This document shows, piece by piece, positions 11,317-14,530 of a DNA stretch of 21,765 nt. The stretch is taken from the IMG/VR virus record IMGVR_UViG_2690316064_000002; one strand, 5' to 3'. The stretch is from a virus (taxonomy: Duplodnaviria > Heunggongvirae > Uroviricota > Caudoviricetes). Below the pieces are notes generated by a model that had not been told where the DNA came from, ran no database searches, and worked only from the letters and a program-made list of their open reading frames with translations. The stretch's first letter is position 1; each line of letters begins with the position of its first letter. Both the position numbers and the translations under genes were made by a program.

Positions 11317-11378
11317 ACCATCTGCGGTGATAAATTATCTCTGGCGGTGTTGACATAAATACCACTGGCGGTGATACT
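11317..11378 (+). promoter_or_regulatory. Left operator/promoter: oL3 (11317-11333), oL2 (11336-11352), oL1 (11360-11376), pL -35 TTGACA (11350-11355) and -10 GATACT (11373-11378)
   Basis: TATCTCTGGCGGTGTTGACATAAATACCACTGGCGGTGATACT is the canonical lambda oL/pL sequence; similarity to lambda ends about 20 bp downstream of the -10. Confidence 0.92.
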
Positions 11379-11626: not shown

Positions 11627-12010
11627 ATGACACGCAGAACTCAGTTCAAAGGCAATTCACGTTCTCGTCGTCGTGAGCGTTTAAAGGCAAAGGCATTAGC
11701 TAACGGCGTACTGGCCCGCGAAGAAGCAATAAGTTCAGAAGTATTACACCGCCCTACTCTAAGCAGAGCGCAGATTCAGGCTAAAGGTACTCACGAAACG
11801 CCTGAGCGCATAGAAGACGCTAAGCCAATTAAGTTCATTGCACAGGACGTGATCTGGCAACAGAAAGAATACAGACGCAATCTGGAGCGAGCGGCCATTG
11901 TGTACGCGAATGAGTTTGGACATAAGCAACCAGAAACTGGTGTATGTCTTCCAAACGTAGCCATTTACGCGGCAGGATACCGGAAATCAAAACAACTGAC
12001 AGCCAGGTAA
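11627..12010 (+). CDS. N: N-family transcription antiterminator, P22 gp24-like (not lambda N)
   Basis: 127 aa; arginine-rich motif near the N-terminus (NSRSRRRERLKAKALA) and C-terminal LPNVAIYAAGYRKSKQLTAR resembling the P22 gene 24 protein end; SD AGGAGG at 11615-11620. Confidence 0.8.
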   Translation: MTRRTQFKGNSRSRRRERLKAKALANGVLAREEAISSEVLHRPTLSRAQIQAKGTHETPERIEDAKPIKFIAQDVIWQQKEYRRNLERAAIVYANEFGHKQPETGVCLPNVAIYAAGYRKSKQLTAR

Positions 12011-12013
12011 GTG

Positions 12014-12238
12014 ATGAATCAGACATACATTCCATCATGCTTGAGAAATCTGCCAAAGCAGAAAGCAAAGCCCCGCAAGCAAGCCATAAAGGACGCTAAG
12101 GCAGAGGTTATTGATCAAGCAATACAATTGCTCAGGAAGGAGTTAAGAAGTGGCAAGCTCGAAGGAATGATGATGCCCTATCAGCGCGGATATCTATCGG
12201 CGATTAGTAAGTTGGAAGTATTGAAGAGTGAATTATGA
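12014..12238 (+). CDS. Hypothetical basic 74-aa protein immediately downstream of N
   Basis: ATG at 12014 (GTG at 12011) abutting the N stop, AGGT upstream; predicted helical; no family recognised. Occupies the interval where lambda, by my mapping, has roughly 0.4 kb more sequence. Confidence 0.4.
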   Translation: MNQTYIPSCLRNLPKQKAKPRKQAIKDAKAEVIDQAIQLLRKELRSGKLEGMMMPYQRGYLSAISKLEVLKSEL

Positions 12239-12300
12239 ACTATCTGGAATTTCCGGATGGTTCATTGTTTTGGCAGCAAACCACTTATTTGAGGTGAGAT

Positions 12301-12387
12301 ATGGAAGAAGAATTTGAAGAGTTCGAAGAGCATCCTCAGGATGTGATGGAACAATACCAGGACTATCCGTATGACTGCGACTATTGA
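12301..12387 (+). CDS. orf28-like small acidic ORF (MEEEFEEFEEHPQDVMEQYQDYPYDCDY)
   Basis: 28-aa ORF with GAGGTGAG SD; overlaps the ral start by 17 nt, as the lambda orf28/ral pair does in my recollection. Confidence 0.45.
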   Translation: MEEEFEEFEEHPQDVMEQYQDYPYDCDY

Positions 12388-12468
12388 TAAGAATCAATGG
12401 TGTGGGCAATACGAACGACGGCAATGATTGTCAGAGAACTTGGTAAACAGAACAACAAAGCTGCCTGA
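12371..12468 (+). pseudogene. ral: ral (restriction alleviation) remnant with an internal out-of-frame deletion of about 103 bp
   Basis: N-terminus MTATIDKNQWCGQ matches lambda Ral, then the frame changes and stops at 12425; the Ral C-terminus WAIRTTAMIVRELGKQNNKAA is present in another frame ending at 12468. Both parts join at a shared TGGGCAAT. Confidence 0.5.
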
Positions 12469-12604
12469 TAGTGGCCTTTATTTTTGGCATAAATAACAGA
12501 ATAAACACTGCACTGTGTATTCATTCCAACGAGTGAATACACGGAGCAATGTCGCTCGTAACTAAACAGGAGCCGACTTGTTCTGATTATTGGAAATCTT
12601 CTTT

Positions 12605-12630
12605 GCCCTCCAGTGTGAGGGCGATTTTTT
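12605..12630 (+). terminator. Intrinsic terminator (GCCCTC-CAGTGT-GAGGGC plus T6) upstream of ea10; tL-type
   Basis: 6-bp GC stem, 6-nt loop, followed by GATTTTTTAT. Confidence 0.6.
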
Positions 12631-12650
12631 ATCTATGAGGATATGAACAG

Positions 12651-13019
12651 ATGTCAAACATCAAAAAATACATCATTGATTACGACTGGAAAGCATCAAT
12701 AGAAATTGAAATCGACCATGACGTAATGACAGAGGAAAAACTTCACCAGATTAATAATTTCTGGTCAGACTCTGAATACCGACTCAATAAACACGGCTCT
12801 GTATTAAATGCTGTATTAATCATGCTGGCGCAATATGCTCTGCTTATAGCAATTTCGAAAGACTTAAATGCATATGGTGTTGTTTGTGAGTTCGACTGGG
12901 ATGATGGAAATGGTCAGGAAGGATGGCCTCCAATGGATGGTAGTGAAGGAATAAGAATTACCGATATCGATACATCAGGAATATTTGATTCAGATGATAT
13001 GACTATCAAGGCCGCCTGA
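12651..13019 (+). CDS. ea10: Ea10-like early protein (122 aa)
   Basis: Same length and position as lambda ea10 between ral and cIII; recognised by position and length, sequence recollection is weaker. Confidence 0.7.
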   Translation: MSNIKKYIIDYDWKASIEIEIDHDVMTEEKLHQINNFWSDSEYRLNKHGSVLNAVLIMLAQYALLIAISKDLNAYGVVCEFDWDDGNGQEGWPPMDGSEGIRITDIDTSGIFDSDDMTIKAA

Positions 13020-13091
13020 GTGCGGTTTTACCGCATACCAATAACGCTTCACTCGAGGCGTTTTTCGTTATGTATAAATAAGGAGCACACC

Positions 13092-13256
13092 ATGCAATAT
13101 GCCATTGCAGGGTGGCCTGTTGCTGGCTGCCCTTCCGAATCTTTACTTGAACGAATCACCCGTAAATTACGTGACGGATGGAAACGCCTTATCGACATAC
13201 TTAATCAGCCAGGAGTCCCAAAGAATGGATCAAACACTTATGGCTATCCAGACTAA
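13092..13256 (+). CDS. cIII: CIII (FtsH/HflB inhibitor)
   Basis: 54 aa [54 protein letters not shown] = lambda cIII; the track ORF begins earlier in the same frame. Confidence 0.9.
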   Translation: MQYAIAGWPVAGCPSESLLERITRKLRDGWKRLIDILNQPGVPKNGSNTYGYPD

Positions 13257-13368
13257 ATTCACTATCGCCACTTTTATTGGCGATGAAAAGATGTTTCGTG
13301 AAGCCGTCGACGCTTATAAAAAATGGATATTAATGCTGAAACTGAGATCAAGCAAAAGCATTCACTAA
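13225..13368 (+). CDS. kil: Kil (host-killing FtsZ inhibitor)
   Basis: 47 aa [47 protein letters not shown]; overlaps cIII by 32 nt and gam by 46 nt, as in lambda. Confidence 0.8.
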
Positions 13369-13739
13369 CCCCCTTTCCTGTTTTCCTAATCAGCCTGGCA
13401 TTTCGCGGGCGATATTTTCACAGCTATTTCAGGAGTTCAGCCATGAACGCTTATTACATTCAGGATCGTCTTGAGGCTCAGAGCTGGGCGCGTCACTACC
13501 AGCAGATCGCCCGTGAAGAGAAAGAGGCAGAACTGGCAGACGACATGGAAAAAGGCCTGCCCCAGCACCTGTTTGAATCGCTATGCATCGATCATTTGCA
13601 ACGCCACGGGGCCAGCAAAAAAGCCATTACCCGTGCGTTTGATGACGATGTTGGGTTTCAGGAGCGCATGGCAGAACACATCCGGTACATGGTTGAAACC
13701 ATTGCTCACCACCAGGTTGATATTGATTCAGAGGTATAA
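13323..13739 (+). CDS. gam: Gam (RecBCD inhibitor); internal start at 13443 (MNAYYIQ..., SD AGGAG) gives the 98-aa GamS form
   Basis: 138-aa translation matches lambda Gam; the strong internal SD supports the short form as the major product. Confidence 0.93.
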
Positions 13740-13744
13740 AACGG

Positions 13745-14530
13745 ATGAGTACAGCACTCGCAACGCTGGCAGGGAAGCTGGCTGAACGTGTCGGCATGGA
13801 TTCTGTCGACCCACAGGAACTGATCACCACTCTTCGCCAGACGGCATTTAAAGGTGATGCCAGCGATGCGCAGTTCATCGCATTGTTGATCGTCGCCAAC
13901 CAGTACGGCCTTAATCCGTGGACGAAAGAAATTTACGCCTTCCCTGATAAGCAGAACGGCATTGTTCCGGTGGTGGGCGTTGATGGCTGGTCCCGCATCA
14001 TCAATGAAAACCAGCAGTTTGATGGCATGGACTTTGAGCAGGACAATGAATCCTGTACATGCCGGATTTACCGCAAGGACCGCAATCATCCGATCTGCGT
14101 TACCGAGTGGATGGATGAATGCCGCCGCGAACCATTCAAAACCCGCGAAAGCAGAGAAATCACGGGGCCGTGGCAGTCGCATCCCAAACGGATGTTACGG
14201 CATAAAGCCATGATTCAGTGTGCCCGTCTCGCCTTCGGATTTGCTGGTATCTATGACAAGGATGAAGCCGAGCGCATTGTCGAAAATACCGCATACACTG
14301 CAGAACGTCAGCCGGAACGCGACATCACTCCGGTTAACGATGAAACCATGCAGGAGATTAACACTCTGCTGATTGCCCTGGATAAAACATGGGATGACGA
14401 CTTATTGCCGCTCTGTTCCCAGATATTTCGCCGCGACATTCGCGCATCGTCAGAACTGACACAGGCCGAAGCAGTGAAAGCTCTTGGATTCCTGAAACAG
14501 AAAGCCACTGAGCAGAAGGTGGCTGCATGA
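13745..14530 (+). CDS. bet: Bet (Red-beta single-strand annealing protein)
   Basis: 261 aa [59 protein letters not shown]... = lambda Beta. Confidence 0.95.

Follow-up and report, generated by a model that had tools for sequence, protein, structure and literature searches.

We are highly confident that the window, the whole 21,765-nucleotide stretch of viral DNA analysed here, carries a dead lambda-type ral gene from which 103 bp were lost between two imperfect octamers, that the prophage inherited the gene in this state, and that the deletion most likely arose at least twice. In an alignment of positions 12290-12660 of the window with lambda (NC_001416, of which 33000-36000 was fetched), the stretch 12371-12468 differs from lambda ral (34087-34287, complement) by one 103-bp gap and no other indel, and the orf28-ral-spacer-ea10 module is collinear with lambda, with flanks of the gap 96-99% identical. 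The alignment thus gave a frameshifted 98-bp remnant and not an intact ral frame, and it bears out the initial annotation, which had placed a ral gene with a 103-bp deletion at 12371-12468 from the letters of the sequence.

The early left region and the deletion in ral

The window belongs to a lambdoid prophage, of which it takes in the left arm and the early region; its last genes are xis, int and the host gene ybhC, which adjoins the lambda attachment site. In the host DNA at the ybhC end there is a match to naRNA4 (RF02564; 21576-21646, - strand) at 60.7 bits, against a gathering threshold of 59.5 bits. The features around ral are listed below with the evidence for each.

11350-11378, + strand: pL-like promoter (promoter/terminator scan)
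11627-12010, + strand: antiterminator N, a non-lambda allele (Pfam N_peptide match)
12011-12238, + strand: 75-codon ORF, unrelated to sieB, at the place of lambda sieB (ORF list)
12301-12387, + strand: orf28, intact (17-nt overlap with the start of ral, also present in lambda)
12371-12468, + strand: ral pseudogene, 98 bp left of 201 (lambda alignment, tblastn, PGAP call on an identical stretch)
12371-12427, + strand: 18-codon ORF from the authentic ral start (the first 13 residues alone are Ral sequence)
12397-12468, + strand: 23-codon ORF MVWAIRTTAMIVRELGKQNNKAA, stop at 12466-12468 (translation)
12403-12410, + strand: deletion junction octamer TGGGCAAT (lambda alignment and intact alleles)
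12469-12632, + strand: non-coding spacer with sRNA LPR1/PreS and terminator tL2a (alignment, terminator scan, RNA fold)
12651-13019, + strand: ea10 (DUF2528), intact (Pfam; distance to the ral stop as in lambda)
13079-13137: cIII RNA thermometer (Rfam RF01804)

The overlap with orf28 is unchanged and the spacing to ea10 is 182 nt as in lambda, which agrees with the initial annotation on both points, and after ea10 the pL operon continues with cIII, kil, gam, bet and exo, all present, where the same annotation had listed gam, kil and cIII as kept. It had also reported sieB as missing, and a tblastn search over the window with lambda SieB indeed gave no match at E<0.1. The 75-codon ORF at that place has no Pfam or NCBIfam match and is followed by a terminator-like hairpin (12235-12265, + strand). 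Among the family collections, Pfam was the informative one, and an NCBIfam scan matched none of the five sequences tried (the remnant, lambda Ral, the 75-aa ORF, orf28 and ea10). We also noticed a ~30-nt sequence, GCAGCAAACCACTTATTTGAGGTGAGATATG, directly before orf28 (12273-12303, + strand). With 1-2 changes it is found again right after a divergent class of ral whose C-terminus ends in AMIERELEKLKAA (loci L154, L164, L175, L202, L209 and L211), and beyond its copies downstream of these divergent alleles lie different small ORFs. The sequence resembles a linker, equipped with a ribosome-binding site, that is reused at the boundaries of mosaic modules.

Lambda Ral is a protein of 66 aa, MTTTIDKNQWCGQFKRCNGCKLQSECMVKPEEMFPVMEDGKYVDKWAIRTTAMIARELGKQNNKAA. 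The first 35 nt and the last 63 nt of the remnant are collinear with lambda ral, with three nucleotide differences from it (two within the first 35 nt and one, A55V, within the last 63 nt), and the place of the gene in the pL operon is the same, with the orf28 overlap upstream and the PreS/tL2a spacer and ea10 downstream. What sets the remnant apart from lambda ral is the missing 103 bp (codons 12/13 to 46; residues 14-45) and the frame shift at the junction. Since 103 is not a multiple of 3, the ral ATG yields an 18-residue peptide and then a stop: the frame from ATG 12371 reads MTATIDKNQWCGQYERRQ, 18 codons, and stops at 12425-12427. The conserved C-terminus (WAIRTTAMIVRELGKQNNKAA) is kept solely in another frame, within the 23-codon ORF, whose ATG at 12397 is out of the ral frame, inside codons Q9-W10, and which runs into the conserved Ral C-terminus. 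Consistent with the translations, tblastn with lambda Ral matched residues 1-16 and 46-66 in different frames of the window and residues 17-45 nowhere in it, so the earlier reading of the two Ral ends as lying in different frames was correct; the search returned these two remnant pieces only, and no second ral copy in the window.

The endpoints of the deletion fall in a short direct repeat. In lambda, the left copy is TGGACAAT and the right copy is TGGGCAAT, 103 bp apart and matching at seven of eight positions. This corrects the initial annotation, which had given TGGGCAAT at both positions of lambda as a perfect 8-bp repeat, and it supports the proposal made there of a microhomology-mediated deletion, though with a repeat that is imperfect. 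The same left and right octamers were found in 120 of 121 intact alleles drawn from IMG/VR and reference records, the sole exception being the divergent allele L164 with TGGGCAAT at both positions. The remnant keeps one octamer, without inserted or filler nucleotides at the junction, and deleted alleles are all exactly 98 bp long. If the parent was lambda-like, the breakpoint would lie within TGG, at 12403-12405. An intact 201-bp ral lost one octamer copy together with the DNA between TGGACAAT and TGGGCAAT, probably by slipped-strand mispairing or another microhomology-mediated event, and this left the C-terminal segment out of frame and only the 18-residue peptide behind the ral ATG. The deletion resembles the classical short-repeat spontaneous deletions of E. 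coli lacI, reportedly described by Albertini and colleagues in 1982, in that one repeat and the intervening DNA are lost without filler and the endpoints lie in an octamer repeat. It differs from them in the imperfect repeat (7/8), in the presence of both possible junction bases in nature, and in that other equally good repeat pairs of ral have not been seen deleted.

By our own calculation, the chance of a match of at least 7/8 at two given positions is ~4e-4. However, lambda ral contains 18 octamer pairs with at most one mismatch (shuffled mean 10, sd 4.4), so the TGGACAAT/TGGGCAAT pair is not unique within the gene, and some of its near-repeats are better than the octamer pair, for example the exact 7-mer AAGCTGC, which occurs twice, 130 bp apart. 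Microhomology by itself does not explain why this deletion alone is seen. No hairpin uniting the repeats was apparent in single-stranded folds of the deleted interval, which on both strands behaved like shuffled sequences (z = +0.4 to +0.8). An in-frame deletion of 108 bp between the neighbouring near-repeat ATCAATGG / ATAAATGG was not found in IMG/VR, where the two matches for such an allele proved to be unrelated sequences.

Lost residues and the fate of the remnant

In an alignment of 28 Ral homologues (Escherichia, Salmonella, Citrobacter, Kluyvera, Cronobacter, Providencia, Proteus, Pantoea and Erwinia), little or no variation is seen at C11, C17, C20 and C26, in the ECMVKPEEM core, at G40 and D44, and across the block W46-L58, and within the C-terminal block W46, R49, T50, T51, M53, I54, R56 and L58 are invariant. 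C17, C20, C26 and the ECMVKPEEM core were lost with the deletion, and C11, the sole conserved cysteine left, stands in the 18-codon frame. The W46-L58 block (WAIRTTAMIAREL) is kept as WAIRTTAMIVREL, in a frame other than that of the ral start codon. The Pfam Ral model PF11058 matches the remnant at model positions 46-66 only (38 bits) and lambda Ral at positions 1-66 (162.5 bits). Of the features that mark the family, the remnant has the place in the early-left operon, with N/orf28 before it and ea10 after it; it has neither a single ORF of ~59-67 aa that matches PF11058 end to end nor the four conserved cysteines with the ECMVKPEEM core. No relative of the family was found by sequence in the PDB, and an AlphaFold2 model of lambda Ral built with the 28 homologues is of low confidence (pLDDT 62), giving a hint that residues 45-65 may form one helix. 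In 16 of the 121 otherwise full-length ral alleles, we observed a different lesion, a nonsense change at K60 (AAA to TAA) that takes away the last 7 residues and leaves a 59-aa form, as in IMG/VR loci with the C-terminus ARELG-stop-QNNKAA; it occurs also together with the 103-bp deletion (the type of phage ECP1, our locus L008).

Ral enhances modification by Type IA enzymes and is non-essential (PMC12707154). Because C17, C20 and C26 are lost, the C-terminus is split from the start codon and the PF11058 match is partial, it is natural to infer that restriction alleviation has been lost in this prophage, as the initial annotation had concluded. The prophage would then no longer stimulate de novo methylation by Type IA enzymes of the EcoKI/EcoBI class, and its unmodified progeny would be restricted more severely on hosts of the EcoKI/EcoBI type. 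Ral has a functional analogue in Lar/RalR, by which the Rac prophage alleviates Type I restriction (PMC4041452); in both cases the activity is encoded by a prophage.

The piece that is left could be imagined to work on its own. The 23-residue ORF (MVW followed by AIRTTAMIVRELGKQNNKAA) retains the best-conserved block of Ral, and this explains why the remnant is still recognised by Pfam and PGAP; the deletion brought an existing ATG in frame with this block, the low-confidence model makes residues 45-65 one helix, RefSeq sometimes annotates the ORF as a protein, and no secondary indels were seen in ~35 deleted alleles. If ribosomes that finish orf28, whose stop lies 10 nt upstream, re-initiated on this ORF, or if it were translated in another way, it might act as a functional mini-Ral or as a modulator of HsdM, and this would account for the recurrence of so precise an out-of-frame deletion. 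We regard this as very unlikely. On reading the sequence, a convincing Shine-Dalgarno motif is absent before ATG 12397, three of the four conserved cysteines are gone, and the A-type junction described below itself turns the nearly invariant A47 into T. In the C-terminal 63 nt of the remnant, 8 sites vary among the 33 deleted alleles alone, compared with 4 that vary only among 109 intact alleles, and changes at family-invariant residues are commoner in deleted than in intact alleles (7 of 35 versus 9 of 121; Fisher p = 0.05 in a small sample), those in deleted alleles being T50A+T51A, L58P, L58F and extra stops (ELG followed by two stops). On this evidence, decay seems likelier than function.

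Distribution and origins of the deleted allele

The junction was searched with a 60-nt probe across it, at an E-value limit that excludes half-matches. Of 5,426 complete E. coli genomes, 51 have it, at 55 sites that all lie on chromosomes and match the probe at 93-100% identity over the 60 nt, and 786 have intact ral, counted as a match covering at least 80% of the 201 bp; ~6% of ral-bearing complete E. coli genomes have the deletion. In IMG/VR the junction occurs in 27 contigs, of which 14 have G and 13 have A at the variable position, and a sample of IMG/VR anchored on the downstream non-coding element contains intact and deleted ral at 35:5. Among the phages of the collection searched, only Escherichia phage ECP1 has the junction, a free, plaque-forming phage whose recorded host is MG1655. 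The initial annotation had asked whether other prophages carry the same allele, and these genomes, contigs and phage answer that they do. The exact 23-aa remnant of the window is recorded from 307 contigs, and two variants of it are recorded from 273 and 178. A single junction match came from a scan of GTDB species representatives, in a MAG labelled Segatella copri; its contig is 3.5 kb long, and we suspect it to be a mis-binned phage contig that is uninformative on taxonomic spread.

A 2-kb stretch of the window, deletion included, is 100% identical in nine complete genomes, so the prophage inherited the deletion and did not acquire it itself; no intact counterpart of its lineage was found among the 2-kb matches in complete genomes. 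The closest complete genome to the prophage is that of E. coli Z1323HEC0108, with 99.5% identity over 88% of the window, and it differs by an IS1203 between N and ral (12710-13923 of its locus, L226), which the window does not have. ECP1 (KY979108 / NC_049926) and RefSeq E. coli chromosomes such as CP017631 and CP148374 carry the identical 103-bp deletion with the G-type junction. In ECP1 and strain S51, however, the flanking modules differ from those of the window and an 82-codon ORF takes the place of ea10, and other deleted loci have other genes upstream or downstream than the window has. The 82-codon ORF of ECP1, ECP1_057 (868-1116 of L008; also at 870-1118 of L006), is named 'antirestriction protein ral'. 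It has no Pfam Ral match, and the name appears to be an error.

Annotation of the deleted allele itself is inconsistent in RefSeq/PGAP, where some records give a 23-aa 'antirestriction Ral family protein', others a 98-bp 'frameshifted' Ral pseudogene and still others an incomplete pseudogene. The 'frameshifted' call was made on a 98-bp stretch identical to that of the window in strain Z1323HEC0108 (L226, 14184-14281), and a pseudogene is likewise annotated at 595-692 of L003. The 23-aa protein is annotated instead at 3021-3092 of L002 (WP_106410686.1), 621-692 of L004 and 620-691 of L005; WP_106410686.1 stands on the 23-codon ORF in strain SLK172. We found no paper that describes this deletion allele. 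It is an ordinary, presumed loss-of-function allele, already annotated in RefSeq, and nothing new in kind.

The same exact 103 bp are missing from every deleted allele examined (~35), and the length classes are 201 and 98 bp only. Two junction forms exist, TGGGCAAT (G) and TGGACAAT (A), and the deleted alleles lie on 22 distinct haplotypes. The junction base should be set by the side of the mismatch on which the strands switch, or by which strand slips. Given two junction forms on many haplotypes, the deletion likely had at least two origins. It is somewhat unlikely, in our judgement, that there was instead one ancient deletion, spread by homologous recombination or gene conversion, with the A junction made by a later G-to-A mutation, an account that competes only with the 'at least two origins' part of our explanation. 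On a neighbour-joining tree, the deleted alleles cluster above chance, as a single event would have it (11 Fitch steps; random mean 18, minimum 13), their private substitutions and their distance of 1-2% from the nearest intact allele suggest old lineages, and one deletion type only is seen despite the 18 candidate repeat pairs. The intact alleles alone have 36 incompatible site pairs and a Hudson-Kaplan minimum (Rm) of 4 within ~195 nt, implying that fine-scale exchange or recurrent mutation is common here. Yet the G and A junctions are about equally common in IMG/VR (14 vs 13) and are exactly the two products due from a 7/8 repeat, and each of the three variants of codon 7 (AAA, AAG and ACA), a codon 13-17 nt away from the junction, occurs with either junction base, which makes six combinations. 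The nucleotide diversity of the flanks is the same in deleted (0.045) and intact (0.046) alleles, and the deleted allele L007 of strain Z1323CEC0013 equals intact lambda in every column of the flank alignment (~195 nt) while it differs from the allele of the window on both sides of the junction. Because the intact alleles alone already violate the four-gamete test, the tree, parsimony and four-gamete results fit both recurrent deletion and fine-scale recombination, which they cannot separate. An intact sister near-identical over +/-1 kb was found for none of the deleted alleles among the compared loci, the best intact/deleted pair having 2 mismatches in 931 nt and 4 in 222 nt.

Recurrence at a hot spot is possible. 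A bolder proposal, that the 103-bp deletion is a recurrent hot spot possibly favoured by selection, or else that the 23-residue peptide keeps an activity, seems to us improbable. Were the hot spot real, slippage on either strand would have produced the G and A junctions and many independent lambdoid lineages would have been struck; the loss of Ral could then benefit lysogens or phages, for example where Ral would otherwise lower the Type IA barrier of the host itself or be sensed by a defence system. We give next to no credence to the opposite polarity, in which the short form came first and lambda later gained the 103 bp as an insertion with an 8-bp target-site duplication. Direct repeats around a segment do also mark transposition, but in the 201-bp form a single coherent ORF reads through the segment, over which its conserved cysteines and core extend; this form is 65-80% identical across nine Enterobacterales genera, and the Pfam model covers all 66 positions. 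The short form, by contrast, is frameshifted and confined to E. coli-type alleles that are 93-100% identical, and the GTDB scan added to these the contig labelled Segatella copri alone; the Ral family alignment effectively refutes this polarity. It is just as hard to credit an assembly or sequencing artefact, or a mutation private to this genome, for which we found no point in favour: the same junction in the 51 complete genomes, the 27 IMG/VR contigs and the independently sequenced phage, together with the 307 contigs that have the remnant, refutes it. We therefore retain a deletion in an intact lambda-type ral, with a likely plural origin, as the best explanation.

The intact neighbourhood and the meaning of the loss

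The spacer after ral (12469-12632, + strand, ~165 nt) is untouched by the deletion and nearly invariant in the allele alignment. Its RNA fold has a z of -5.3 and includes a perfect 14-bp hairpin, and by the terminator scan it ends in an intrinsic terminator, a hairpin at 12603-12624 with a T run. It has no Rfam family match, LPR1/PreS not yet being in Rfam 15. The spacer corresponds to the Hfq-dependent sRNA LPR1/PreS that ends at terminator tL2a and is reported to raise host dnaN translation during lytic growth (bioRxiv 10.1101/2024.10.31.621285). A 43-nt core of the spacer follows many unrelated genes in IMG/VR, and ral is absent in 73 of the 113 contigs whose flanking sequence is sufficient to judge.

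The rest of the early-left operon, N, orf28, PreS with tL2a, ea10, cIII, kil, gam, bet and exo, is intact in this prophage. The deleted allele circulates widely among lambdoid phages and prophages of E. coli, with the G and A forms as the probable two products of the 7/8 repeat, and it makes a modest natural example of a repeat-mediated deletion that leaves both junction bases in the population; as a marker of the direction of slippage it would be usable only if recurrence were demonstrated. The 23-aa RefSeq entries such as WP_106410686.1 are pseudogene fragments. They would inflate counts of anti-restriction genes, and surveys of prophage counter-defence should leave them out of the tally of anti-defence genes.
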